Shown: piece after piece, positions 2,580 through 60,120 of the stretch
Numbering within the stretch: the first letter of the stretch is position 1
Layout: each line of letters opens with the position of its first letter
Source: Clostridia bacterium
GTDB lineage: Bacteria; Bacillota; Clostridia; Christensenellales; CAG-138
Assembly (NCBI GenBank): GCA_017525875.1
Contig: JAFXSG010000004.1
Location: forward strand, 76,738-140,737
DNA length: 64,000 bases
Reading direction: 5' to 3'
Notes under the pieces: model-generated
The model's input: only the letters and a program-made list of their open reading frames with translations
What the model was told of the DNA's origin: nothing
Databases searched by the model: none
Translations under genes and position numbers: made by a program

Positions 2580-2622
2580 AGAAACAGCGATGAAGCGGCG
2601 TACTTCCACGGAAGTGCGCCGC

Positions 2623-2807
2623 AGCTAAATTCGCCCGAAGGCGAGCTAAATTTGCTGACGCAAGCTAAATTTGCCTGCGGCAAGCTAAATTCGCTGCGGC
2701 GAGCTGAAGGGCGAATTTAATTTAGCTGAAAATCTATGATTTTCAATTTAGCTGACGCAAAGCGTCAATTTAGCTGATAAAAGCTGGCGCGAAGCGGCAA
2801 TTTAGCT
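2623..2807. repeat. AGCTAAATT 'ladder' element, copy 1 (185 bp)
   Basis: AGCTAAATT at 2623, 2644, 2663 and 2683. Centre AGCT-gaag-GGCGAATTTAATTTAGCT at 2702-2727. Reverse 9-mer AATTTAGCT at 2719, 2745, 2767 and 2799. Most inter-motif spacers are short self-complementary hairpins; the last right-arm spacer (gataaaagctggcgcgaagcggc) is not obviously one. Confidence 0.9.
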
Positions 2808-2840: not shown

Positions 2841-3212
2841 ATGTCCGACAGTGTTATGCTTGAAAAAGCAAAGGACTTTGCTGTTGAAACAGTAAAGATT
2901 TGTAAATCTATCAAGGAAGCAAAACGAGAATCGGTTTTGACAAATCAGTTGATCCGCTCGGGCACTTCTATAGGAGCAAACATTCACGAATCGAAATACT
3001 CTCACAGCACTGCCGATTTTATAGCAAAAATGCAGATCGCATTAAAGGAATGTTATGAGTCCGAATACTGGCTGGAGCTGCTTAACAGAACCGATTATTT
3101 ATCTGAGGAACAGTACAGATCGCTGCAAGGCTTGTGCGGAGCCATACGCCGGATGTTGATCTCATCGATAAATACGACCAAAGCAAATACAAACGAAAAC
3201 CAGAAAGCATAA
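2841..3212 (+). CDS. Four-helix-bundle protein (23S rRNA intervening-sequence protein / Avd-like family)
   Basis: 123 aa. Resembles TIGR02436/PF05635 by eye (SVLTNQLIRSGTSIGANIHES, DFIAKMQIALKECYESEYWLELL). G+C is visibly far below the neighbours (22 G+C in the first 60 nt, hand count). Confidence 0.8.
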   Translation: MSDSVMLEKAKDFAVETVKICKSIKEAKRESVLTNQLIRSGTSIGANIHESKYSHSTADFIAKMQIALKECYESEYWLELLNRTDYLSEEQYRSLQGLCGAIRRMLISSINTTKANTNENQKA

Positions 3213-3220
3213 GCAAACCC

Positions 3221-3246
3221 GCCCCCGGCTCCCCGGGGGCGTTTTC
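3221..3246 (+). terminator. Hairpin terminator between convergent 4HB gene and feoB
   Basis: GCCCCCGG (3221-3228) / CCGGGGGC (3233-3240) perfect stem, then TTTT (3242-3245). Confidence 0.65.
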
Positions 3247-5142
3247 TTATCCGACCAGCCGTATCGTCCCGTTCAGCGCGGCGAGCAGTATGAATCCGAC
3301 GGCGGTGGGGAGCAGCATCGAGAGCAGCATCCACTTCGTCCCCGCCTCCTTGCGGATCGTGAGGCAGGTCGTCGAGCAGGGCCAATGGAACAGGGAGAAG
3401 AGGATCACCGAGAGCGCAGTCACCCATGTCCAGCCGTTTGCGGAGAGCACGTTCCAAAGCTCCGAATACGAGCCGAGCTCCGCAAGGCTCCTGCCCGAGG
3501 TGTACGCGAGGATGGCGATCGGCAGCACGATCTCGTTCGCGGGGAAGCCGAGGATGAACGCGGCGAGGATCGCGCCGTCCAGCCCGAAGAAGCGTGCGAA
3601 CGGGTCGAGGAAGGCGCAGAACGCGGAGAGCAGCGAGCCGTTCCCGACATGGATATTCGCAGCCGCGTAGATGACCAGCCCCGCAGGCGCCGCGACCGCG
3701 ACCGCGCGGGCGAGCACGTGCAGCGTCCGGTCGAGCACGCTGCGGATGATGAGCTGACCGAGCTTCGGCGGGCGGTAGGGCGGAAGCTCCATAAGAAAAT
3801 CGCTTTTTTCCCCGCGCAGCAGCGTTTTTGAAAGGATGAACGTCACAAGGAGCGTCACGAAGACCGCGAGCAGCACGAACGCCGCGGTGAGCCCCGCGGC
3901 CGCTGCGGCGGACGAGGCGAGGAAGATCGAGCTGAGCGCGATGATCAGCGGGAACCGCCCGTTGCAGGGCACGAAGCTGTTCGTGACTATCGCCGCGAGC
4001 CGCTCCTTTTCGCCGGGGATGATGCGGCAGCCGACCACGCCCGCCGAATTGCACCCGAAGCCCATGCAGACCGTCAGCGCCTGCTTGCCGCAGGAGCCAG
4101 CGCAGCGGAAGCAACGGTCTGTGCAAAAGGCGGCGCGGGGGAGATACCCGAGGTCCTCGAGCAGCGTGAACAGCGGGAAGAATATCGCCATCGGCGGCAG
4201 CATGACGGAGACCACCCACCCCACCGTGCGGAACATCCCGTCGAGCAGCGCGCCTGTCAGCCACGGGGCGACGTTCAGCCGTTCAAACAAGGCGCGGATC
4301 AGGCCCTCGAGCGCGGTAAAGCCCTTTGAAAGCAGCTGAGAGGGATAGTTCGCGCCGATTATCGTGAGGTAGAACACGCCGAGCAGCAGGGCGAGCATCA
4401 GCGGGAGGGCAGTGTATTTGCCCGCGGCGATGCGGTCGATGCGCTCCGTGAGGCTGCTCCTGCAGTGCACGGGCCGCGAGATAACGCCGTCAAGCAGCCG
4501 CGTGCATTCGGCGAGGCAGGCAACGGAGGCCTCGCCGCCGCCTTCGCCGGGCAGGAACGAGCGGTATTCGGCCTTCGGCGCCGCGGTCTCGTCCGCGAGC
4601 GCCGCGTCGAGCGCCGAGAGCAGCGCGTCGAGCCCCCGCCCGCTCCGCGCCGCGCAGGGCACGACGGGCACGCCGAGCCGCGAGGAGAGCAGAGCAAAAT
4701 CTATTCTTAGCCCGCGCTTTTCCGCCTCGTCGGAGAGATTGCAGCAGATCACCGCCCGGGGCGCGAGCGCCAGGATCTGCAGCGCCAGCGCAAGGCTGCG
4801 CTCAAGGCAGCAGCAGTCCACCACCGCGATCACCGCCGCGGCCTGCCCGCAGGCGAGGAAATCCCGCGCGACGGCCTCCTCGCGCGAGGCGGGGTCCAGC
4901 GAATAGCAGCCCGGAAGATCCACAAGCTCGAGCTCCCGCGCGCGGCATCTCCCGCTCGCGAGGGCAACGGTCTTGCCCGTCCAGTTCCCTGTGTGCTGAC
5001 GAAGGCCGGTCAGGGCGTTGAAAACGGTGCTTTTGCCGACGTTCGGATTGCCCGCGAGCGCAACGACGGGCAGGGAACGGCCGCCCGCCGAGCGGTCCGA
5101 AAGCGCCGCGCCGCGCCCGGCGGAAGCAGAGGTCAGTCCCAT
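3247..5142 (-). CDS. feoB: Ferrous iron transporter FeoB
   Basis: Start reassigned to ATG 5142, preceded by GGAGGCGGGCGA. G-domain P-loop GNPNVGKST and a long polytopic membrane domain. Overlaps the feoA stop by 10 nt. The 715-aa track ORF is an N-terminal over-extension. Confidence 0.9.
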   Translation of the reverse strand: MGLTSASAGRGAALSDRSAGGRSLPVVALAGNPNVGKSTVFNALTGLRQHTGNWTGKTVALASGRCRARELELVDLPGCYSLDPASREEAVARDFLACGQAAAVIAVVDCCCLERSLALALQILALAPRAVICCNLSDEAEKRGLRIDFALLSSRLGVPVVPCAARSGRGLDALLSALDAALADETAAPKAEYRSFLPGEGGGEASVACLAECTRLLDGVISRPVHCRSSLTERIDRIAAGKYTALPLMLALLLGVFYLTIIGANYPSQLLSKGFTALEGLIRALFERLNVAPWLTGALLDGMFRTVGWVVSVMLPPMAIFFPLFTLLEDLGYLPRAAFCTDRCFRCAGSCGKQALTVCMGFGCNSAGVVGCRIIPGEKERLAAIVTNSFVPCNGRFPLIIALSSIFLASSAAAAAGLTAAFVLLAVFVTLLVTFILSKTLLRGEKSDFLMELPPYRPPKLGQLIIRSVLDRTLHVLARAVAVAAPAGLVIYAAANIHVGNGSLLSAFCAFLDPFARFFGLDGAILAAFILGFPANEIVLPIAILAYTSGRSLAELGSYSELWNVLSANGWTWVTALSVILFSLFHWPCSTTCLTIRKEAGTKWMLLSMLLPTAVGFILLAALNGTIRLVG

Positions 5143-8575: not shown

Positions 8576-8835
8576 TCTGCCCTCCGCCCGCATGCGGGCA
8601 ATTTAAGGATCCCTGCTATTATACCACGCTTTTTGCGGATTTGACAGGCAAAACGTGCATGACCGCTCCCGTTTCCCAACGGGAAACCGTATTAAGCCTC
8701 CGCGGACCTTTTGATTTTTCGCCGCGGCAGGGGGAAAGCACCCCGAAAAAAGCGCTGTGTCCAAGTTTTCCTCCGCGGAATACTGTAAAGGTATGGACGG
8801 GGCTTCCCTTCATTTTGCCCCGCAAGGAGGTTGCC

Positions 8836-9696
8836 ATGGAGGAATTTGCAGGCTATCCCGGGGCGGTCGGCCCCGATATAAAGGAGGATGAGACGGTGCG
8901 GGCAGTCGCGGAGCTGCGCGGCGCAAGCCTCATATACCACGAAAAGCGGGGCGAGACGGCGGCTGTGGAGAACGTTTCGCTCGCGGTCGGCAAGGGGGAG
9001 TTCGTTTCGCTCGTCGGCCCGTCGGGCTGCGGCAAGACGAGCATACTTTCGATGCTTGCGGGCCTTGCGGAGCCAAGCCGCGGCGAGGCGCTGGTGCTCG
9101 GCGCGAGGCCGGATCCGCGGACGAACGCGACGGGTTATATGCTGCAGCGCGATCATCTGCTGGACTGGAGAACGATCGAGGACAATATCATGCTCGGGCT
9201 CGAGGTCAAGGGAAGGCTGAACGACGAGACCCGCGCCTACGCGCTCGAGCTGCTCGATATGTGCGGGCTGACCGATTTCCGCCGGCATTACCCGCGCCAG
9301 CTCTCGGGCGGCATGCGGCAGAAGACGGCGCTCGTGCGGACGCTCGCGTTTTCGCCGGAGCTCTTGCTGCTCGACGAGCCGTTTTCCGCGCTCGATTATC
9401 AGACGCGCTTACTGCTCGCAAACGAGGTGCACGGCATCATCAAGCGGGGCGGCTACACCGCCGTGCTCGTCACGCACGATATCTCGGAGGCGATCGCGAT
9501 GAGCGACCGCATCCTCGTATTCACCCCGCGCCCGGCAAGGCTCAGGCGGGAGATCAGGGTCGGGCAGGAGCTCCTGCGGGACGCGGAGGGGAGGCTCCTC
9601 ACGCCTTTTGAGCGCAGGAACCGCGCGGGCTTCAACGAATACTTCGACCTTGTCTGGAGCGAACTCGAAGGGGGCGTCGGCGATGGCGTCGAATAA
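8836..9696 (+). CDS. ABC transporter ATP-binding protein (NitT/TauT, SsuB/TauB-like)
   Basis: ATG 8836 after AAGGAGG. Walker A GPSGCGKTS, signature LSGGMRQK, Walker B LLLLDEPFSALD. The track ORF from 8569 is an over-extension. Confidence 0.88.
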   Translation: MEEFAGYPGAVGPDIKEDETVRAVAELRGASLIYHEKRGETAAVENVSLAVGKGEFVSLVGPSGCGKTSILSMLAGLAEPSRGEALVLGARPDPRTNATGYMLQRDHLLDWRTIEDNIMLGLEVKGRLNDETRAYALELLDMCGLTDFRRHYPRQLSGGMRQKTALVRTLAFSPELLLLDEPFSALDYQTRLLLANEVHGIIKRGGYTAVLVTHDISEAIAMSDRILVFTPRPARLRREIRVGQELLRDAEGRLLTPFERRNRAGFNEYFDLVWSELEGGVGDGVE

Positions 9697-16934: not shown

Positions 16935-18794
16935 ATGAAAGAACTGTTCAAAAAGACGGCAGCCAACTCCGGCCGAACGGAGAATGGCAGCCCGTCCGGC
17001 CCCGAACAAAACGGGACCGAAAACGAAACGAGCTCTTCAAAAAAACTGAAAGAAAGCTCAACACCCGCTTCATACGGGCATGAGAACTTTATCAAAAAGT
17101 TCTTCCGAGGCATGGTCAAATACAGATTTGCGATCTCATGCGCGGCCGTAGTGCTGCTGACCGCCATCGTCATCAGTGCGATGTTCGGCGGAAGAAACTC
17201 CGCGATAGTTTCGAACGACCCGGACAACACCCAGATCATTGCCGAAAACAACACCCCCGAGCCGGAAGCTACGGAGCCGGCAGAGGAGACCGTTCCTCCG
17301 ACAGCCCCGGCTACCGTTCCGCCGGCAGACCCGAACGAGACCATCCCACCGATCGTGACCCAGGAGCCCTACGAGCCGGTCGAGACCCCCGTCCCGTATC
17401 ACACTCCCCTCATTTTTGAGGTCAGGGACGACACCATAGCAAAGTACGGCTTCCACGACAAGATCATCCCCTCCGTTCAGGAGAGGCTGATGGTCCTCTG
17501 CTACATGGACCAGGATGAGCCGACGGATTATTTCGGCAGGGTCACCAAAGGCGCTCTCGAGGCGTTCCAGCGCAGGAGCGATCTGCCGGTCACGGGAGAG
17601 CTGGACAGGACGACCTATTACAAGCTCTTCGACGTCAACGCGAAGGTCTATCTCTGCAGCGTCGGCGACGAGGGAACGGACGTTCAGGCCATCGAGGAAA
17701 GGCTCTACGAGCTCGGCTATCTCGACGAGGCGAACGAGGTCTTCGATGAAGCTACGCGCGACGCCGTGGTCGACTTCCAGCAGCGCAACGATCTGGATGC
17801 GGACGGCAAGGTCGGCAGGAACACGAAAGAAGCGCTCTATAACCCCGAGTGCGTCGCAAAAGCGTGGGCCTTCGGCGACACCGGCGAAAAGGTGCTCACC
17901 TATCAGAACAGGCTCAGGGAGCTCGGCTACCTGACCACGGAGCCCGACGGCGTTTACGGCAAGGACACGCAGATGGCGGTCCGCCGCTTCCAGATGCAGA
18001 ATCAGCTGATCGAGGACGGCTATCTCGGCCCCTCCACGATCGAAAAGCTGATGAGCGACGATGCGGTCGGCAACGCGCTTTCGATCTCCATGCAGGGTTC
18101 GGACGTGCTCAACGTTCAGATCCGCCTGCATGAGCTTAATTATATGAAGGCTTCGGACGTCAACGGCTATTTCACCTCCCTCACCGAGAAGGCGGTCAAG
18201 CTGTTCCAGAAGAACAACAACCTCCAGCAGGACGGCAAGGTCGGCAGGAACACGATGCGCGTTTTGATGAGCGACGATGCGATCAAGGCGGCGGCTCCCG
18301 TCACCAACACGCCTCCGAGCAGCGGCGGCGGAAATATCGGCGGCGGCAACTCCGGCGGCGGCAACAACGGCGGCGGCGGAGGCGGCGGCAATAACGGCGG
18401 CGGCAACTCCGGCGGCAGCGATGTGCAGAGCAAGATCAACAACTTCATCTCCGTCGCGAGGAGCAAGCTCGGCTGCAAGTACGTCCGCGGCGGCAAGGGC
18501 CCGAACGTGTTCGACTGCTCCGGCTTCGTGTACTGGGTGCTGAACCATTCCGGCGTTTCCCAGGGCTATATGACCAGCTACATGTGGCGCAGCTGCACGA
18601 GGTACCAGCGCAACAACAGCATCTACAACGTCAAGAAGGGCGACGTCATCGTTTACTACGGCCACGTTGCGATCTGCAGCGGCACCTGGACGATGATCGA
18701 TGCTTCCTCCAGCAAGGGCAAGGTCGTTGAGAGGAGCTTCAACGGCAACTACTGGTACAGGAACTTCATCTGCTCCTTCAGGATATTCAGATAA
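16935..18794 (+). CDS. Cell-wall hydrolase: multiple peptidoglycan-binding (PG_binding_1-like) repeats plus a C-terminal NlpC/P60 domain
   Basis: ATG 16935 after AAAGGAGG. TM anchor. Five repeats of the type G.VTKGALEAFQRRSDLPVTGELDRTTY. G/N linker. NlpC/P60 catalytic region GGKGPNVFDCSGFVYWV...GDVIVYYGHVAI. Confidence 0.85.
   Translation: MKELFKKTAANSGRTENGSPSGPEQNGTENETSSSKKLKESSTPASYGHENFIKKFFRGMVKYRFAISCAAVVLLTAIVISAMFGGRNSAIVSNDPDNTQIIAENNTPEPEATEPAEETVPPTAPATVPPADPNETIPPIVTQEPYEPVETPVPYHTPLIFEVRDDTIAKYGFHDKIIPSVQERLMVLCYMDQDEPTDYFGRVTKGALEAFQRRSDLPVTGELDRTTYYKLFDVNAKVYLCSVGDEGTDVQAIEERLYELGYLDEANEVFDEATRDAVVDFQQRNDLDADGKVGRNTKEALYNPECVAKAWAFGDTGEKVLTYQNRLRELGYLTTEPDGVYGKDTQMAVRRFQMQNQLIEDGYLGPSTIEKLMSDDAVGNALSISMQGSDVLNVQIRLHELNYMKASDVNGYFTSLTEKAVKLFQKNNNLQQDGKVGRNTMRVLMSDDAIKAAAPVTNTPPSSGGGNIGGGNSGGGNNGGGGGGGNNGGGNSGGSDVQSKINNFISVARSKLGCKYVRGGKGPNVFDCSGFVYWVLNHSGVSQGYMTSYMWRSCTRYQRNNSIYNVKKGDVIVYYGHVAICSGTWTMIDASSSKGKVVERSFNGNYWYRNFICSFRIFR
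18321..18418 (+). repeat. GGC/AAC-rich simple codon repeat (Gly/Asn linker)
   Basis: Encodes SSGGGNIGGGNSGGGNNGGGGGGGNNGGGNSGGS. Reiterated ggcggcggcaac units. Confidence 0.8.
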
Positions 18795-34120: not shown

Positions 34121-37100
34121 ATGAAAAGATTCTTTGCAACACTGCTTGCGGCTTTGATGGTCATCTCACTGGTATCCATCCCCGTTGCAGCAGAGGGCGA
34201 AGTCGTTTTCACCGCTGATACCGTTACCGGCGTTCTGCCCGGCGACGACGTATCGGTCCCCGTCTATATCGAGGGTGAAAACTTTGAGGCACATACTCTC
34301 AACATGTACGTGGAGTATGATACCGCTGCCCTTACACTGAACTCCATTACCAAGGGCGATATCGTTTCCGATGCAACTATGTGCATCCCGGATGTTTCGT
34401 CCGAACCCGGCAAAGCCAAGTTCGGTTTCCTCTACGTTACGGACGGTTTCACCCAGAGCGGTACCCTGTTCACCATGAACTTCACCGTCAATGCCGAAGC
34501 GACCGAGGACGTCCCGCTTCACGTTGTCGTGGTTGAGTTCGTGAACCTTCCCGTTAACGGTACGGCTACTCCGATCCCCTTCGTCACCGAGGACGGTCTT
34601 GTCGATCTGGACGTTGAGCCGGTCGAGACCGAAGCTCCCGCGACCGAAGAGCCCGTCGAGCATACTCTGGACGAAGCTCTGAACGTCTCCGGCGGCGAGC
34701 TCCACTTCGTGTCCGAAGGCACCTATCCCTGGATCGTTGTTGAGGAAGGCGACCGTCTGTTCGCGCAGAGCGGCAACGGCGGCGTCAGCAGCTCCTCCTC
34801 CACCCTGACCTTGACCGTCGTGTGCGAAGAGGGCGACACCCTTACCTTCGAGTACAAGGCATTCGGCGAAGGCACCAACTCCTATTGGGATCACTGCGAC
34901 TTCTACGTCGACAACACCCGCGTCCTCTACTACGGCGCTCTCCAGAATGACTGGACCGAGTTCACCACCGATCCTCTCACCGCAGGCGAGCACACCTTCA
35001 CCTGGTCCTACACCAAGGACAGCTCCGTCAACCCGAACGGCGACTATTTCGCAGTCGATAACGTTGAGCTGACCGAGGGCGAGCCGGTTGTCACCGAAGA
35101 ACCCGTCGTCACCGAAGAACCCGTCGTCACCGAAGAGCCCACCACTCCTCCCGAGACCGAAGCTCCCGTTTCCGGTCTGATCGCAGGTTACTACTTCGAG
35201 ACCGAGGAAGAAGCCAACGAGTGGACCTTCGAAGATCAGGACGGCGACGGCTACACCTGGCGCTGGCTCTGCTACAACGTGAACTACAGCTATGAGTCCG
35301 CTTACGAAGGCTACGGCCTCCTCTCCTCCGACTCCTACAACAGTGCATGGGGCGGCGCGCTGAATCCCGATAACTGGGCGATCAGCCCCGAAGTCACGCT
35401 TCCTGCTGACACCGCTTCCGTGACCATGTATCTCAGCGCTCAGGATGCAAGCTGGTCCGACGAGATCTTCCAGGTCTACGCACGCAGCACCACCCGCGGC
35501 GAGTGGGTCGCTCTTGCTGACGAGGACTTCACCGCGACCGGTGAGTACCTCCAGTATTCGTTCGATCTTGCGGACTTCCTCGACGACACCGTCCAGATCG
35601 CTGTCCGCCACTACAACTGCACCGACATGTTCCGCCTCAACCTTGACCAGGTCGAGTTCTGGGGCGAGGGCGGCGAGCCTGTTGTGACCGAAGAACCCGT
35701 TGTCACCGAAGAGCCCACCACTCCTCCCGAGACCGAAGCTCCCGTTTCCGGCCTGATCGCAGGTTACTACTTCGAGACCGAGGAAGAAGTCAACGAATGG
35801 ACCTTCACCGGCACCAATGAAACCAACTGGGTATGGTCCGTCAACAACCCCGGCGGTTATGACTACACCGAGTTCGCACATGAAGGCGAAAGATTCATTA
35901 TGTCCTACTCTTTCGTCGACTATGTTGGCGCCTACCAGGCCAACAACTGGGCGGTCTCCCCCGCAGTCACCCTGCCCAACGGCACTGCGTCCGTCACCTT
36001 CTACGCAAGCAATGCCAACTCGTCCTACCCCGAGGCATTCTCCCTCTACGTCGGCACCAGCCCCGACACCGCCTCTATGGATCTGATCGAGGCGAACATC
36101 GCTCCCTCCACCGGCTATGAAGATCCCTGGACTTACTACGAGTTCGATCTTTCCGACTATGCCGGCCAGACCATCTATCTTGCGTTCTACGATGAGTGCT
36201 ACGATATGTATGAGATCTGGATCGACCAGGTCGAGTTCTGGGGCGAGGGCGGCGAGCCTGTTGTGACCGAAGAACCCGTTGTCACCGAAGAACCCATCGT
36301 GACGGAAGTTCCCGGTGAAGAAGAGTTCATCGCAGGTTACTACTTCGAGACTCGCGACGAGGTCAACGAGTGGACCTTTGTTGACGCCAACAACGACGGC
36401 TTCAACTGGATGTGGAACATTGATTACACCTACGAAGACCTCTCCGGCGTTGCCTACGAAGGCGAGGGCTTCATCACCTCCGAGTCCTACTCCAACGATC
36501 CCGACTACAGCGTACAGCCCAAGTATGGCGCGATCGATGCCGACAACTACGCTGTATCCCCCGCTGTGACCCTCCCGGACGGCACCGCGCGCATGACCTT
36601 CTATGCCACCACCTTCGGCAACTACGGTTATGAGCATCTCGCCGTTTACGCAGGCCTCACTCCCGATCCCGCAGACATGACCGTCGTCATGCCGGAGACC
36701 GAGATCTTCGCTACCACCACCGATTCTGTCAACTATGCGCAGTATGAGGTAGACCTCTCCGCGTTCGCCGGTGAGACCGTATACGTTGCGATCCGCCACT
36801 TCAACAGCTACGACTACTTCCTCGTCGGCGTTGACCAGGTCGAGTTCTGGGGCACCGGCGCTCAGCCTGTCGAGACTGAGACTCCCGTTGAGACCCCGAC
36901 TCCCATCGAAGGCGTAGCATTCACCGTTGAGTCCCCCGAGCAGGTACAGCGCGGCGAGACCTTCGACGTCACCGTTTCCCTTGAAGGCGAGTATGAAGCA
37001 CATACCCTCAACTTCATGCTCAACTACAATGCAGACGCATTCGAGCTCGTCAGCACCGCTGCCGGCAACGTCCTTGATCAGGTTAACGAGATCGGCGGCT

Positions 37101-38593
37101 TCCAGCTGATCGACGACAGCACCATTGTCGGCTCCATCCGCCTCGGCGTCATCATGCCCAATGAGGCGTTCACCGCGAACGGCCTGCTGTTCACCGCAAC
37201 CTTCCGCGCGAAGGACGATGCGGCACCCGGCTTCTATGACTTCGTTCCCGAAGTGACCGAGTTCCGCAACTTCCCCGTTGACGGTCAGCCCACCGACATC
37301 GAGTACACCGCTGTTCTCGACACCACCGAGATCGTCGCTCCCATCGAGACCGAAACTCCCATCGAGGGCGTGACCTTCATGGTCATGTCTCCCGACCAGG
37401 TAATGCAGGGCGAAGAGTTCACCGTTGAAGTAGCTGTTCACGGCGACTATGAAGCACACGGCCTGAACTACGCTCTCGCGTATGACGACAGCGTATTCGA
37501 GATCGTCGGCGTCGATACCGACACCGCGGTCCTCAACCAGGTCACCGACCTCGGCGGCGCATACGTCGTCGACTACGAGACCATCCCCGGTTCTCTCCGC
37601 CTCGGCTACATGATGCCCACTGACGGCGTTACCGCTCAGGGCCAGATGCTCGAGATCACCTTCCGCGCTAAGGAAGACGCGGCTCCCGGCCTGTATGACT
37701 TCACTCAGACCGTTGAGTCCTTCCGTTACTTCCCGCTCGACGCTGAGGAAGGCGTTGAGATCCCCTACACCTGCGAGGATGACACCACCGAGATCGTTGA
37801 GAACAACGAGGCAGTCTTCACCGTTGAGTCCCCCGATGAGGTCCAGCGCGGTGAGGAGTTCCAGGTGACCGTTTCCATCAGCGGCAACTACCCCGAAGCA
37901 CACGGCCTGACCTTCGCTCTCAACTATGACGACAGCGTATTCGAGTTCGTCTCCGCAGAGAACGGCGACAAGCTCAACGAGTGCGTTGCGCTCGGCGGCG
38001 TTGTAGCTATCGACGGCGAGACCATCGTCGGCTCCGTCCGTCTCGGCGTTGCGATGCCCACCGACGGCTTCACCGGCGACGGCGTCCTGTTCACCGCGAC
38101 CTTCCGCGCGAAGGACGATGCGGCTGCCGGCCTCTATGAGTTCGCTCCCGAAGTCATGGCGTTCCGCACCTTCCCGGTAGACGCTGAGGAAGGCGAGGAC
38201 ATCCCGTACACCGAGATCGAGGACTACACCGAGATCGTTGACGAGATCGTCACCCCCGAGCCCACCGACGAGCCCACCGTTCCTCCGACCGAGGAGCCCA
38301 CCGTTCCTCCGACCGATGAGCCCACCGTTCCTCCGACCGAGGAGCCCACCGTTCCTCCGACCGAGGAGCCCACCGTTCCTCCGACCGAGGAGCCCACTGA
38401 GGAGCCCACCGAGGAGCCCACTGAGGAGCCCACCGAGGAGCCCACTGAGGAGCCCACCGAGGAGCCCACTGAGGAGCCCACTGAGGAGCCCATCCCGACC
38501 CCGCCGACCGGCACCATCGCACTTGTTGGCGTTGGCATCGCCGCGATCGTCGCAGGCGCAGGCATCGTCCTCTTCAGGAAGAAGGAAGACTGA
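34121..38593 (+). CDS. Cell-surface scaffoldin-like protein: 4 cohesin domains, 3 cleaved-adhesin/choice-of-anchor-J-like modules, 1 unassigned module, P/T/E linker, C-terminal anchor
   Basis: Signal peptide aa 1-24. Cohesins about aa 27-165, 929-1072, 1080-1226 and 1229-1373 (V.F.V.S...V..GE.F.V.V....EAH.L.....YD...FE). Adhesin-like modules aa 352-515, 543-708 and 735-911 (AGYYFE..W.F.D.DGDG..W; NPDNWAISPEVTLP). TPPTG plus a hydrophobic helix plus RKKED at the C-terminus. Confidence 0.8.
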   Translation: MKRFFATLLAALMVISLVSIPVAAEGEVVFTADTVTGVLPGDDVSVPVYIEGENFEAHTLNMYVEYDTAALTLNSITKGDIVSDATMCIPDVSSEPGKAKFGFLYVTDGFTQSGTLFTMNFTVNAEATEDVPLHVVVVEFVNLPVNGTATPIPFVTEDGLVDLDVEPVETEAPATEEPVEHTLDEALNVSGGELHFVSEGTYPWIVVEEGDRLFAQSGNGGVSSSSSTLTLTVVCEEGDTLTFEYKAFGEGTNSYWDHCDFYVDNTRVLYYGALQNDWTEFTTDPLTAGEHTFTWSYTKDSSVNPNGDYFAVDNVELTEGEPVVTEEPVVTEEPVVTEEPTTPPETEAPVSGLIAGYYFETEEEANEWTFEDQDGDGYTWRWLCYNVNYSYESAYEGYGLLSSDSYNSAWGGALNPDNWAISPEVTLPADTASVTMYLSAQDASWSDEIFQVYARSTTRGEWVALADEDFTATGEYLQYSFDLADFLDDTVQIAVRHYNCTDMFRLNLDQVEFWGEGGEPVVTEEPVVTEEPTTPPETEAPVSGLIAGYYFETEEEVNEWTFTGTNETNWVWSVNNPGGYDYTEFAHEGERFIMSYSFVDYVGAYQANNWAVSPAVTLPNGTASVTFYASNANSSYPEAFSLYVGTSPDTASMDLIEANIAPSTGYEDPWTYYEFDLSDYAGQTIYLAFYDECYDMYEIWIDQVEFWGEGGEPVVTEEPVVTEEPIVTEVPGEEEFIAGYYFETRDEVNEWTFVDANNDGFNWMWNIDYTYEDLSGVAYEGEGFITSESYSNDPDYSVQPKYGAIDADNYAVSPAVTLPDGTARMTFYATTFGNYGYEHLAVYAGLTPDPADMTVVMPETEIFATTTDSVNYAQYEVDLSAFAGETVYVAIRHFNSYDYFLVGVDQVEFWGTGAQPVETETPVETPTPIEGVAFTVESPEQVQRGETFDVTVSLEGEYEAHTLNFMLNYNADAFELVSTAAGNVLDQVNEIGGFQLIDDSTIVGSIRLGVIMPNEAFTANGLLFTATFRAKDDAAPGFYDFVPEVTEFRNFPVDGQPTDIEYTAVLDTTEIVAPIETETPIEGVTFMVMSPDQVMQGEEFTVEVAVHGDYEAHGLNYALAYDDSVFEIVGVDTDTAVLNQVTDLGGAYVVDYETIPGSLRLGYMMPTDGVTAQGQMLEITFRAKEDAAPGLYDFTQTVESFRYFPLDAEEGVEIPYTCEDDTTEIVENNEAVFTVESPDEVQRGEEFQVTVSISGNYPEAHGLTFALNYDDSVFEFVSAENGDKLNECVALGGVVAIDGETIVGSVRLGVAMPTDGFTGDGVLFTATFRAKDDAAAGLYEFAPEVMAFRTFPVDAEEGEDIPYTEIEDYTEIVDEIVTPEPTDEPTVPPTEEPTVPPTDEPTVPPTEEPTVPPTEEPTVPPTEEPTEEPTEEPTEEPTEEPTEEPTEEPTEEPTEEPIPTPPTGTIALVGVGIAAIVAGAGIVLFRKKED
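35129..35230 (+). repeat. Intragenic 102-bp direct repeat, copy A
   Basis: Differs at 3 positions from 35705-35806 by manual alignment (linker plus the start of the adhesin-like module). Confidence 0.85.
35705..35806 (+). repeat. Intragenic 102-bp direct repeat, copy B
   Basis: Near-identical to 35129-35230. A more diverged third copy starts near 36250. Confidence 0.85.
38258..38492 (+). repeat. Tandem repeats in the linker: 24-bp unit x5, then 12-bp unit about x8-9
   Basis: gagcccaccgttcctccgaccgag units (PTEEPTVP) followed by gagcccac[ct]gag units (EEPT). Confidence 0.9.
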
Positions 38594-53325: not shown

Positions 53326-53332
53326 AGAGTAA

Positions 53333-53517
53333 AGCTAAATTCGCCGTGAACGGCGAGCTAAATTATTCTTCGCATAGCTAAATTTGCTTCGCAAGCTAAA
53401 TTCGGCTCCGCCGAGCTATAAGAGGCGAATTTAATTTAGCTGAAAACCGCAGGTTTTCAATTTAGCTGAAGCTGCAAGGCTTCAATTTAGCTGCAAGCGT
53501 CAGCGAGCAATTTAGCT
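53333..53517. repeat. AGCTAAATT 'ladder' element, copy 2 (185 bp)
   Basis: AGCTAAATT at 53333, 53356, 53376 and 53394. Centre AGCT-ataaga-GGCGAATTTAATTTAGCT at 53414-53441. AATTTAGCT at 53433, 53459, 53484 and 53509. Begins 8 nt after the dnaB stop. Confidence 0.9.
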
Positions 53518-53536
53518 GAAATATAACGAAAATAAA

Positions 53537-53571
53537 GGACAGACCGAAGCTTCGGTCTGTTCTTTCGTTTT
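53537..53571 (+). terminator. Rho-independent terminator downstream of dnaB and the ladder element
   Basis: GGACAGACCG-aagctt-CGGTCTGTTC stem, then TTTCGTTTT. Confidence 0.7.
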
Positions 53572-58980: not shown

Positions 58981-59343
58981 ATGAGAAAGTATGCGTATCT
59001 GAAGGAACCGTTCAGGCACGGCGGCGAGCTCGTTTTCAAGATCATGCTCTATGAGACCGACGGCGGCTGCTATCTCTACGAGTACGGCAGCCCGGACGCG
59101 TTTCAGTGTTCTGCCGACCTGTTCTACGTTCAGACTGAGGACGTTTACGCCGACTGGGGCGGTCTCATAGACGAAAGGGGTTGGATCGATATAGGCGACC
59201 CGCTGCCCGGCTGCCAGCATGACGCGTTCATACCCCTTCGGGTTAAGGGCCGGGAGGCCGGAAGACCCGAGTGGGGAAAGTATGAAACGCTCAAAGACGG
59301 GGTCTGGGTGGAATTCGATCCGGAAAGCGATACGCAGGAATAA
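58981..59343 (+). CDS. Hypothetical protein (120 aa)
   Basis: ORF with GGAGGAACG upstream and coding-like composition. No family recognised. Confidence 0.5.
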   Translation: MRKYAYLKEPFRHGGELVFKIMLYETDGGCYLYEYGSPDAFQCSADLFYVQTEDVYADWGGLIDERGWIDIGDPLPGCQHDAFIPLRVKGREAGRPEWGKYETLKDGVWVEFDPESDTQE

Positions 59344-59461
59344 CGAATTAAAAGAAAAGAGCTTTGCCGCATTGCAAAGCTGCAAAAAACGAACCCGCTC
59401 AGACGTCTTTCTATTACGGAGAGCGTCACGGCGGGCCATTCTTTTGGAAAAATGGAACAAA

Positions 59462-59641
59462 AGCTAAATTGCTCGCTTCCGTTCGCAGTTAAATTGAAGC
59501 CTCACGGCTTCAGCTAAATTGAAAACCTGCGGCTTTCAGCTAAATTAAATTCGCCTGTAAGCTCGGCGGAGCCGAATTCAGCTTGCGAAGCAAATTTAGC
59601 CGGGCGCAGCCCGATTTAGCTCGCCTAAGGCGAATTCAGCT
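59462..59641. repeat. AGCTAAATT 'ladder' element, copy 3 (180 bp, inverted relative to copies 1-2, slightly degenerate)
   Basis: AGCTAAATT 59462, AGtTAAATT 59487, AGCTAAATT 59512. Centre AGCTAAATTAAATTCGCC-tgta-AGCT at 59538-59563. AATTcAGCT 59575, AATTTAGCc 59593, gATTTAGCT 59613, AATTcAGCT 59633. Spacers cggcggagccg and tgcgaagca are the exact reverse complements of two copy-2 spacers (cggctccgccg, tgcttcgca). Confidence 0.9.
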
Positions 59642-59646
59642 TAAAC

Positions 59647-60120
59647 TCAATCCCACCATTTGAGCATTATCAGAAATTCGCCCGTGTCGTCCACGGGCTT
59701 TTTTTCGCCCGTCGGGTAAAAGCCGTGGCGGGAGTAAAAGGCGATGGCGCGCTCGTTCTTTTCAAGCGCCCAGAGCCTGTCCGCGCCGCGTTCGAGCACG
59801 GCGAAGCGGAGGAGCGCGGAGCCTAAGCCTCCGCCCTGGAACACGGGCTCGACGAAGAGCTTTTCGATCTCGCTGCCGTTTACCCGGATAAAGCCCTTGA
59901 CCACTCCGTCGTCGAAGACGAAGGTGCCCGCGATAAGCTCCGGCTTTTCGCCGTATTCGCCGATAAGCACCGGCACGGTGAGCTCCGAAAAGAAGTATTC
60001 GTCCGTTCTGAAAACGGGATAGAAGTTCAGCCGGTAATTGAAAAGCTCGATCTCGGCGAGCCTTGCGGCGTCTTCCGGCCGCGCAGGGCGGATATTCGTG
60101 TTTTTTACAGTATCGTTCAT
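59647..60120 (-). CDS. GNAT-family N-acetyltransferase
   Basis: 157 aa. Acetyl-CoA motif VFQGGGLGSALLRFA. Starts 4 nt after the mfd stop. Confidence 0.85.
   Translation of the reverse strand: MNDTVKNTNIRPARPEDAARLAEIELFNYRLNFYPVFRTDEYFFSELTVPVLIGEYGEKPELIAGTFVFDDGVVKGFIRVNGSEIEKLFVEPVFQGGGLGSALLRFAVLERGADRLWALEKNERAIAFYSRHGFYPTGEKKPVDDTGEFLIMLKWWD

Follow-up and report, generated by a model that had tools for sequence, protein, structure and literature searches.

What is the array of short repeated words that follows the gene rny in a Clostridia bacterium of the GTDB lineage Christensenellales CAG-138, and what might read it? The window, that is, the whole stretch of DNA that was analysed, comprises 64,000 nucleotides of contig JAFXSG010000004.1 (assembly GCA_017525875.1, positions 76,738 to 140,737 of the forward strand), and it holds 19 exact matches to the word AGCTAAATT against 0.22 expected, a number reached by none of 100 shuffles. 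All 19 are confined to three clusters (copies 1, 2 and 3), each of which has a conserved centre between four words in forward and four in reverse orientation, the words being separated by hairpin spacers, and we call this element a ladder; no further word array of the ladder type lies in the 64-kb window beyond these three. An earlier note on this DNA had proposed a dispersed, structured, non-coding element, and our results support that proposal. We add that the ladder may be the non-coding half of a two-part module, widespread in gut Clostridia, in which a strong hairpin or terminator, a palindrome of 4+4 words and a gene for a four-helix-bundle protein of about 115 amino acids (aa) would follow one another.

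The positions that the earlier note had given for the eight words of copy 1 hold exactly, as do its other coordinates (Table 1). The left arm of copy 1 has three hairpin spacers of 10-12 nucleotides (nt), whose loops are mostly T..C, and the right arm has three longer ones (13-23 nt), with GCGAAGC at 2787-2793; across the family the spacers measure 9-12 nt on the left and 11-17 nt on the right, and because the two arms differ in this respect the element has a defined orientation. The centre of copy 1, AGCT-N4-GGCGAATTTAATTTAGCT, spans 2702-2727, and the plan AGCT-N4-6-GGCGAATTT, which had already been described, is shared by copies 1 and 2. The end of word 1 together with the beginning of spacer 1 finds its complement in the GGCG+AATTT of the centre; for the 3-4 bases before AATTT and the start of spacer 1, this long-range complementarity reaches 3.42 of 4, against 2.86 in shuffled sequences, whose maximum was 3.08 (2000 shuffles). 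The earlier note had passed over the adjacent four-helix-bundle gene, the flanking transfer RNA (tRNA) genes, the mirrored polarity of the loops and a further hairpin, numbered 0, which in copy 1 begins 15 nt past the rny stop codon (2577-2579). In loci of the same subfamily, homology with the window begins at 2594 and thus takes in hairpin 0, which in this subfamily is part of the element. In most of the copies collected a long perfect hairpin likewise abuts word 1, and it comes in three types: GCGGTGTACTTC..GAAGTACACCGC, a terminator-like GAAAAAAG-stem-CTTTTTTC, and an extended -10 box plus hairpin. Labels of the form L117 denote collected loci or contigs that carry a ladder or the protein gene; most of the sequences compared are metagenome assemblies.

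Table 1. Coordinates of the three ladder copies, of the features beside them and of related segments in other loci; positions are those of the window unless a locus is named.
Feature	Position	Strand	Details
Copy 1, ladder	2623-2807	+	185 bases; 8 exact words and hairpin spacers
Hairpin 0	2595-2622	+	12-bp GC-rich stem gcggcgtacttc / gaagtgcgccgc with one T.G; ends exactly at word 1
Left arm of copy 1	2623-2691	+	forward words AGCTAAATT at 2623, 2644, 2663, 2683
Centre of copy 1	2692-2718	+	fourth hairpin (cgctgcggcg), truncated word AGCT, 4-nt loop, GGCG+AATTT, then first reverse word
Right arm of copy 1	2719-2807	+	reverse words AATTTAGCT at 2719, 2745, 2767, 2799
Four-helix-bundle protein gene	2841-3212	+	123 aa; 33 nt after copy 1
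GC-rich bidirectional terminator	3220-3241	.	between four-helix-bundle gene and convergent feoB
Copy 2, solo ladder	53333-53517	+	4+4, all words exact; 7 nt past dnaB stop codon; without four-helix-bundle gene
Intrinsic terminator after copy 2	53534-53565	+	14-pair stem, then T-rich tail
Copy 3, solo ladder, inverted, decayed	59462-59641	-	3 exact words and 5 words with one mismatch
Terminator-like hairpins downstream of copy 3	59350-59436	-	59394-59435 with T-run 59384-59389; 59360-59381 with tail CTTTTCTTTT
Gut-1-like match, copy 1	2622-2695	+	25.5 bits; full model 1-77 matched
Gut-1-like match, copy 2	53332-53407		30.5 bits; full model 1-77 matched
Gut-1-like match, copy 3	59570-59642	-	32 bits; full model 1-77 matched
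Ladder with other word	L117 6050-6232	-	
Ladder with other word	L050 2717-2885		
Ladder with other word	L029		
Ladder with other word	L129 6278-6477		
Ladder with other word	L066 1824-1995		
Ladder with other word	L040 2962-3027		
TTGGCATCTAAATT segment	L033, L044, L050, L053, L060, L061, L064, L066, L089, L098, L102, L128		downstream of solo ladders

The spacer hairpins are under selection for structure, as the earlier note had supposed on seeing self-complementary spacers with compensatory changes. In an alignment of 44 independent full copies, of which the five local helices that align cleanly were tested, the local hairpins are 93.9% paired (60.4% when shuffled), 18 of 18 pairs have changed on both sides, and covariation scores 0.814, compared with 0.208 for shuffled alignments, with none of 500 shuffles reaching the observed value; sliding the partners by 1-3 columns, as a control, lowers it to 0.135 or less. 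The two halves of a stem pair far more often when both are taken from one element than when they come from the same slot of different elements (81/10%, 63/11%, 95/20%, 59/17% and 61/22%). Covariation also links the final base of each word to the initial base of the word that follows (U-A 36, G-C 6 and C-G 2 at one site; U-A 28 and G-C 15 at a second), and each hairpin therefore includes the word ends, as in the model of the RNA family Gut-1, to which we return below; it is this closing pair that covaries, and not the closure on AGCT with an AAATT bulge that had been suggested before. Two ladders of one assembled genome (L055 and L073) have the same architecture and differ from one another by compensatory substitutions, which indicates that the structure has been kept in each copy after duplication.

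Copy 1 does not stand alone. The protein encoded just downstream of it matches PF05635 (23S_rRNA_IVP, 3.2e-28) and TIGR02436 (109 bits) and is Avd-like; its closest solved relative is PDB entry 2rld (1.3e-30), deposited with five chains, and a sequence-profile search of the PDB gave no relatives besides 2rld and 2gsc. Copy 1 is thus an inverted 4+4 array directly upstream of a co-oriented TIGR02436 gene, which is how we define the module. Homology at the DNA level between the window and eight loci runs from word 1 (2622/2623) to near the end of the gene. By tblastn, co-oriented homologues at 75-81% identity lie directly after ladders in L122, L057, L041, L036, L103, L117, L062 and L086, a 57%-identical one follows the ladder in L064, and partial matches occur in L068 and L097. 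Such pairs are found in at least nine other genomes, with different neighbours and with neither rny, feoB nor any other window gene there, so that ladder and gene travel as a unit of about 590 bp. The same association is seen from the side of the protein: among 80 metagenome loci whose relatives are 52-83% identical, gathered by two conserved peptides of the protein clade, nearly all of those with at least 230 nt of upstream sequence have an inverted word array just upstream of the gene. Recent mobility of the gene itself was considered and rejected, for the identical protein is present on 19 contigs and all the contexts retrieved are the same (rny, gene, feoB). On a phage or plasmid origin, which was considered too, the evidence is uninformative: a plasmid search for relatives of the protein gave no match, and relatives of 52-61% identity occur in two unannotated faecal records named 'Bacteriophage sp.' (MT835815.1 and MT835590.1).

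The module also has a preferred address. Of 55 protein loci whose upstream sequence was long enough, 40 have a co-oriented tRNA or transfer-messenger RNA (tmRNA) gene that ends 144-376 nt upstream, with none in the opposite orientation, and these neighbours comprise fourteen tRNA types plus tmRNA; likewise, 14 of 80 AGCTAAATT ladders have a tRNA or tmRNA gene within 120 nt upstream, again with none opposite. At the tRNA-linked loci the symmetric terminator GAAAAAAG-stem-CTTTTTTC comes directly after the tRNA CCA, and word 1 follows without a gap (promoter and terminator calls here and below are consensus matches only). The 64-kb window itself has no tRNA, tmRNA or ribosomal RNA (rRNA) gene. 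Copy 1 follows rny rather than a tRNA, in a context that is constant within the species, and is a module relocated behind rny, the usual site being just 3' of a tRNA or tmRNA terminator.

Which feature of the ladder could be read? All eight words of a ladder stay identical and its spacers diverge freely, and the word depends on the clade of the adjacent protein: we distinguish the classes AGCTAAAT, GTGAAG(T), ATGAAG(C), GTGAAAT and GCGATAT, plus a class without hairpins, and 4+4 words recur in every one of them, the hairpin-free class included. Proteins that share a word class are on average 75-82% identical (59% in the case of GTGAAAT, with its three members), and those of different classes 43-61%; only pairs of classes whose words are nearly identical depart from this (GTGAAG vs ATGAAG, 76%; TTACTT vs TTCACT, 77%). 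Two word classes can occur as neighbours, each with its own gene: L117 carries two complete modules 0.9 kb apart, AGCTAAATT+IVP-1 and GCGATATA+IVP-2, the first consisting of an extended -10 box, hairpin 0, the AGCTAAATT ladder, a ribosome-binding site and the gene, and the second of TATAAT, hairpin 0, the GCGATATA ladder and a paralogue that shares 51% identity with the window protein. Eight identical words and clade-specific words call most simply for a single reader whose specificity shifts with the module, and the four-helix-bundle protein is the only constant candidate.

That correspondence, together with the conserved 4+4 number and the presence of the word in both orientations, would also suit an operator array in double-stranded DNA, whose words would bind a sequence-specific factor, possibly the four-helix-bundle protein, in a 4+4 arrangement for autoregulation; in the RTGAAG and GTGAAAT classes the array does lie just upstream of a promoter-like site. 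However, an operator needs neither covarying hairpins nor strand-polar loops; word spacing across the family varies from 16 to 32 bp and hence keeps no helical phase; the words of the hairpin-free class, 7-8 bp apart, are too close for separate duplex sites; and solo ladders in 3' untranslated regions (UTRs) have no gene to regulate. PF05635 proteins are not known to bind DNA in a sequence-specific way. We therefore regard a duplex operator as rather improbable.

The ladder has a relative among described RNAs. At its curated thresholds Rfam gives no match in the window, and the earlier note had recognised no Rfam family; at relaxed thresholds, however, Gut-1 (RF01706) is the best family for the left arm of each copy, at 25-32 bits against a threshold of 50 (Table 1), and sister ladders with the word GTGAAAT pass that threshold (72, 64.3, 53.7, 52.2, 52.1 and 51.8 bits), in one of them (L209) with the right arm passing as well on the opposite strand (50.8 bits). 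Since the window copies match the full model below threshold and the GTGAAAT ladders exceed it, we take the ladder family to be a sister of Gut-1, and Gut-1 itself to be, on these scores, one arm of a 4+4 palindrome of GTGAAAT words. Published Gut-1 is a motif of 77 nt with three hairpins and the linker GUGAAAU, which Weinberg et al. (2010; PMC2864571, paper and supplement) found only in human-gut sequences and in no sequenced organism. The two share tandem short GC-rich hairpins, an invariant A-rich linker whose ends close the stems, covariation of the stems and a gut metagenome source, and the window copies show these features with at least three tandem hairpins each; moreover, the Gut-1 sister ladders stand in the context of the module, between a tRNA and a four-helix-bundle gene. 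The differences are that the window linker is AGCUAAAUU and not GUGAAAU, with scores below 50 bits, and that the published motif turns out, in the ladders, to form one arm of a 4+4 palindrome, with matches on both strands (L209) and linkage to a protein gene and to tRNAs.

Both Rfam and Weinberg et al. (2010; PMC2864571) class Gut-1 as a small RNA (sRNA), and a stand-alone sRNA gene would agree with the extended -10 box (TGGTAGAAT or TGGTATAAT) that one subfamily has just upstream of hairpin 0. We think this reading very improbable: no terminator separates the ladder from the gene, most copies have a terminator and not a promoter immediately upstream, and the window copies lie inside host 3' UTRs.

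The link between the two families matters because each is an orphan annotation. Gut-1 has been in Rfam since 2010 with neither organism, context nor function beyond 'human gut only', and PF05635/TIGR02436, the 'four helix bundle protein', with at least 8000 matches in the protein search, is among the commonest uncharacterised small proteins; here they are joined into one testable hypothesis. What is new is that Gut-1-type arrays are half of a 4+4 palindrome, that the word changes with the protein clade and that the module usually lies behind tRNA terminators. In practical terms, ladders break metagenome assemblies and stay unannotated; given one covariance model per word class, hundreds of intergenic stretches in Clostridia of the rumen and gut would gain a label.

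The reading that we favour, tentatively and with a little less than even confidence, is that the array, folding as a single strand, is the cognate multivalent ligand of the adjacent protein, accompanied by dispersed solo derivatives. The ladder would act as a folded single strand, most likely of RNA rather than of single-stranded DNA; the hairpins would be structural spacers kept by selection; the invariant word, the same in eight positions and different from one protein clade to another, would be the determinant of specificity; and the whole array would offer its words to a protein that is probably pentameric. Pairing of arm to arm needs only pairwise complementarity and so does not by itself account for eight identical words. 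A solo ladder would offer the protein of its own word class an additional site, and the putative outcomes of binding include autoregulation, assembly of a ribonucleoprotein, processing of transcript ends or spread of the element. In a bolder form, which we consider unlikely, an Avd-like pentamer would specifically read word-and-hairpin arrays, and several orthogonal pairs of word and protein would coexist in a genome, each with its own population of solo ladders at the 3' ends of transcripts and behind tRNA genes; this could be a partnership of the REPIN-RAYT kind (see below) without a transposase, possibly spread by a reverse transcriptase in trans, or possibly acting on the ends of stable RNAs. 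If true, this bolder form would give a first function to Gut-1 and to the very large branch of PF05635/TIGR02436 that lies outside the diversity-generating retroelements (DGRs).

Several observations weigh against this proposal: (i) The arm-to-arm fold suggested by the earlier note is indeed predicted by RNAalifold, as a nested ladder with hairpins branching from helices that the words of one arm form with those of the other, but the pairs between the arms never vary and covariation therefore lends the fold no support; single-base variants of a word are not compensated in the opposite arm, and their transitions follow different patterns in the two arms (15 that preserve a wobble pair vs 6 disrupting in the forward arm, 1 vs 10 in the reverse arm). 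(ii) Tests of strand stability disagree between the classes. (iii) In polarity, the loops of one arm mirror those of the other; a DNA inverted repeat has such dyad symmetry, and one continuous RNA does not predict it. (iv) The gene adjoins only about 10% of the AGCTAAATT ladders sampled, copies 2 and 3 being without it. (v) A word in both orientations is more natural for recognition of a duplex than for single-stranded RNA. (vi) In non-AGCT classes a promoter lies between ladder and gene (TTGCTA-17-TATAGT with TG; extended -10 boxes) and a terminator directly precedes the ladder, so that in these classes the ladder need not be on the mRNA of the gene. (vii) Joint inheritance of linked DNA could, alone, yield the correspondence between word and protein.

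As for the strand, single copies fold better than shuffled sequences on both (z of -3.40 and -3.75). Mismatches in right-arm stems (A.G 51 vs C.T 3; G.T 11 vs A.C 1), the greater stability of the right arm on the plus strand in 40 of 48 copies of the AGCT family (p = 1.6e-7) and the extended -10 box of one subfamily speak for a plus-sense RNA. In the GTGAAG class, however, each arm is more stable on the strand where its own word reads forward, and judged from these comparisons the evidence on strand conflicts. A stricter wobble count was too sparse for a choice of strand.

The loops deserve a closer look. In the AGCT family they are T..C in 109 left-arm hairpins and G..A in 1, and in the right arm G..A in 59 and T..C in 1; the mirroring returns in the RTGAAG class (left arm 21 to 0, right arm 17 to 4) and in the GTGAAAT class (4 to 0 and 3 to 0). 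Read outward from the centre, the loops of all hairpins take the form G(N)NA, and among the right-arm spacers some are GCGAAGC or GCGTAGC, which Hirao et al. reportedly found to form exceptionally stable DNA mini-hairpins. In an RNA ladder folded back on itself, the loops of the two arms should have the same sense, and the mirrored loops observed fit a DNA inverted repeat. Kissing loops between the arms were considered and rejected: the loop classes are reverse-complementary, but complementarity within an element is not above chance.

Such strict dyad symmetry is what a selfish DNA repeat, comparable to REPINs or to miniature inverted-repeat transposable elements (MITEs), might show: the two arms would be equivalent inverted ends, folding in single-stranded DNA and moved by an unlinked enzyme, and the four-helix-bundle gene would be a neighbour or cargo with the same preference for sites behind terminator hairpins, and its product would not be the reader of the word. 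The distribution of ladders has much that agrees with it. A scan that took a single genome from each species and required three exact words separated by 8-26 nt, which favours well-preserved copies, found at least 120 loci, and among the loci listed nearly all are from genomes of Clostridia, Oscillospiraceae, Ruminococcus or Acutalibacteraceae that were assembled from gut samples of ruminants and humans. At least 90 elements in 82 sequences carry the centre motif AATTTAATTTAGCT (with at most one mismatch); 44 of these 90 have exactly 4+4 words, most others being cut by contig ends or having decayed words. Three copies lie in the 64-kb window, several occur per assembled genome, and most ladders are solo. 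Arrays also grow by duplication of units (4+7 words in L019, 8 or more in L020, 13 consecutive in L052), and whole elements stand in tandem in L041 and L065.

Copy 2 bears on the same question. At the dnaB site the ladder is present in the same species and in a contig with a 98%-identical DnaB, and species with 80-81% DnaB identity have a terminator only at that site and no ladder, so that the ladder was gained or lost between species. A clean empty site at dnaB was not obtained, the intergenic DNA of the 80-81% species being unalignable, a contig with 95% DnaB identity being rearranged and the 98% contig having the ladder. A metagenome contig of the same species (L216) ends at its position 3982 inside the right arm of copy 2, as expected for a repeat that breaks assemblies. 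The strong hairpin or terminator that most copies abut would suit a preferred landing place as well. Against a selfish repeat, no transposase or recombinase is linked to the ladder: within 3 kb of copy 1 the genes are those for RNase Y, FeoB, FeoA and a permease. By inspection, the three copies of the window show no target-site duplication, and copies within one genome are 75-85% alike and differ by compensatory changes, which implies long-term selection on each copy. Moreover, word class and clade of the neighbouring protein go together, and words occur downstream of the gene in only 4 of 55 loci, so that the gene is not flanked by ladders on both sides; for the same reason we rejected a transposon with the gene between two ladders. 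On balance a purely selfish repeat seems to us unlikely, though it deserves to be taken seriously.

Comparison with known systems sharpens what is particular to the ladder. Repetitive extragenic palindromes (REPs), bacterial interspersed mosaic elements (BIMEs) and the REPIN-RAYT system consist of extragenic, multicopy hairpin repeats, mostly at gene 3' ends, with one cognate single-copy gene beside a repeat. Ladders, too, are extragenic, multicopy and mostly at gene 3' ends, with solo copies outnumbering the gene-linked ones; but their linked gene encodes a four-helix-bundle protein and not a Y1 (RAYT) transposase, the ladder stands on one side only, linkers are conserved and stems vary (the reverse of REPs), and there is no GTAG-type 5' tetranucleotide. 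The ends of Tn7 and Mu, and MITEs derived from them, carry multiple subterminal sites that are direct within an arm and inverted between arms; ladder words are arranged in this way with almost nothing between the arms, but here a transposase is lacking, the linked gene lies outside the arms and the spacers are covarying hairpins. A MITE is defined by terminal inverted repeats plus a target-site duplication; in the ladder the outermost words form a 9-bp inverted repeat, and inspection of the sequence on either side of the three window copies showed no direct repeat of at least 4 bp.

Type III toxin-antitoxin systems (ToxIN-like) have identical direct repeats upstream of a ToxN/AbiQ-type endoribonuclease gene. 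They resemble the module in placing an array of short repeats, specific to the protein family, just upstream of a small protein gene; in the ladder, however, the units differ, the array flips, the protein is PF05635 and not of the ToxN/AbiQ fold, and solo arrays are dispersed. In DGRs, Avd works together with nucleic acid that is structured, and the targets have a GC-rich hairpin whose loop is of the GAAA type. The four-helix-bundle family to which the window protein belongs resembles this accessory protein (PMC10053308). Ladder spacers, however, vary in a compensatory and not an adenine-directed manner, and no reverse transcriptase is among the genes within 3 kb, the template and variable repeats (TR/VR) of a DGR not having been specifically searched for. 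The intervening sequences of 23S rRNA that hold an S23p/PF05635 open reading frame (ORF), as in Coxiella and Leptospira, are regarded as selfish (PMC4990558). They share with the module a PF05635 ORF in a small element attached to a stable-RNA gene and a strong complementary stem; such sequences are inserted in helix 25 or 45 of a 23S rRNA gene, however, and the ladder is outside rRNA, in the order rny, ladder, gene, feoB, and its word-hairpin array lies upstream of the ORF, with no stem enclosing the ORF. CRISPR, with its direct repeats of 23-50 bp and spacers that are not self-complementary, was rejected (the ladder word is 9 bp and flips orientation, the spacers are hairpins, and the genes within 3 kb of copy 1 are not cas), and iterons and coding repeats are excluded by the anatomy of the ladder; in saying that the element was neither REP/BIME, CRISPR nor an iteron set the earlier note was right.

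The two solo copies of the window raise the question of what a ladder does where no gene follows it. Copy 2 lies in the order dnaB stop, ladder, terminator. Copy 3 has its three exact words within 59462-59546 and eight words once one mismatch is allowed, and it is the reverse complement of copies 1 and 2 both in the three-copy alignment (81% mean column identity) and in its minus-strand Gut-1-like match; its spacers resemble those of copy 2. Because it is inverted, its start is the end that lies 5 nt past the stop codon of a minus-strand GNAT gene (59647-60120). The earlier note, according to which every copy starts within about 120 nt of a stop codon, was thus correct for rny and dnaB, but the gene upstream of copy 3 is GNAT and not the ORF at 58981-59343 that had been named. 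The flank downstream of copy 3 folds at -24 kcal/mol. Copies 2 and 3 are therefore sense-oriented, each with the stop codon of its host gene before it and a same-strand terminator after it, and the suggestion that ladders are transcribed as 3' UTRs is plausible, since the copies follow the stop codons of co-oriented genes and precede their terminators.

A generic RNA element of 3' ends, without a dedicated protein, could have just this position, and would shield transcripts against 3' exonucleases, block read-through from strongly expressed genes (tRNA operons, rny, dnaB) or be processed by RNase III or RNase Y, for which the RNase-processed stem in the intervening sequences of 23S rRNA offers a parallel. 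The sense orientation of all three window copies between stop codon and terminator agrees with such an element, as do the orientation of the upstream gene across loci (co-oriented in 42, opposite in 16, by a crude call from stop-to-stop ORFs), the constant co-orientation of flanking tRNA and tmRNA genes, the folding of both strands described above and the long imperfect duplex that the hairpin-free class would form. It leaves unaccounted for, however, the eight identical words, the clade-specific word and the conserved 4+4, and the tRNA-linked ladders lie after the terminator; we hold it to be decidedly improbable.

The remaining observations concern variants of the family and the surroundings of its members. 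Ladders of the same plan with other words, GCGATATA and AGTTATATT, often lie beside a AGCTAAATT ladder on the same contig (Table 1), and in L066, L129 and L050 ladders of two or three word classes stand side by side. In the hairpin-free class, words of 6-7 nt (TTCACT or TTACTT, then AGTGAA or AGTAA) recur every 7-8 nt; at L156, L161, L169, L171, L177, L184 and L196 the array lies about 150-250 nt upstream of the protein gene, in the order tRNA terminator, tight TTCACT or ACTTATT array, second copy of that terminator's 3' half, AGTGAA or AGTAAT array. This second copy (extended by TGG/TGGT in L156/L161 and L177) can pair with the tRNA 3' end plus an A-run, and the order of the words relative to the gene is the reverse of that in the hairpin classes. 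Canonical AGCTAAATT ladders are also carried by two IMG/VR contigs catalogued as viral, L007 (10181-10312) and L012 (145-327), the latter directly downstream of a co-oriented tRNA-Ser, and the former with tRNA genes about 250 nt beyond the ladder.

Two further segments recur around ladders. A long terminator-like hairpin, GAAAGAAAATAACCCACTATGACACTTTC...GAAAGATGTCAGAGTGGGTTTGTTTCTTCTTT, which has no match in Rfam, is found 40-60 nt after solo ladders (L026, L043, L082, L087, L094, L114 and L120) and again downstream of four-helix-bundle genes of different genomes (L134, at about 972 and some 470 nt after the gene; L142, at about 551 and just after it); the hairpin common to both suggests that solo ladders may be modules that lost their gene. 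A conserved TTGGCATCTAAATT-N-TATAAT with a near-word ATCTAAATT follows the right arm of many solo ladders; it is also present upstream of module 2 of L117 (about 6290-6255, minus strand), and in some loci it leads into another hairpin 0 and ladder.

Within the three window copies there is a promoter-like TTGAAA-16-TAAATT with 9 of 12 matches, at 2746-2719 (-), 53460-53433 (-) and 59519-59546 (+), which reads from the second reverse word toward the centre and so runs antisense to the host gene upstream. As a general feature of ladders an internal promoter was rejected, the spacing that it needs being found in the window subfamily only. A weak match to Pseudomonadales-1 at 8806-8919 (28.5 bits, threshold 68) is probably due to chance. 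Elsewhere in the window, words ACCGAAG and GGCGGCAA recur every 15-27 bp without hairpin spacers at 35090-35156, 35687-35732 and 18342-18400 and are unrelated to the ladder, and positions 38270-38470 hold a tandem repeat with an exact period of 24 bp, about eight or more units and two sub-variants.

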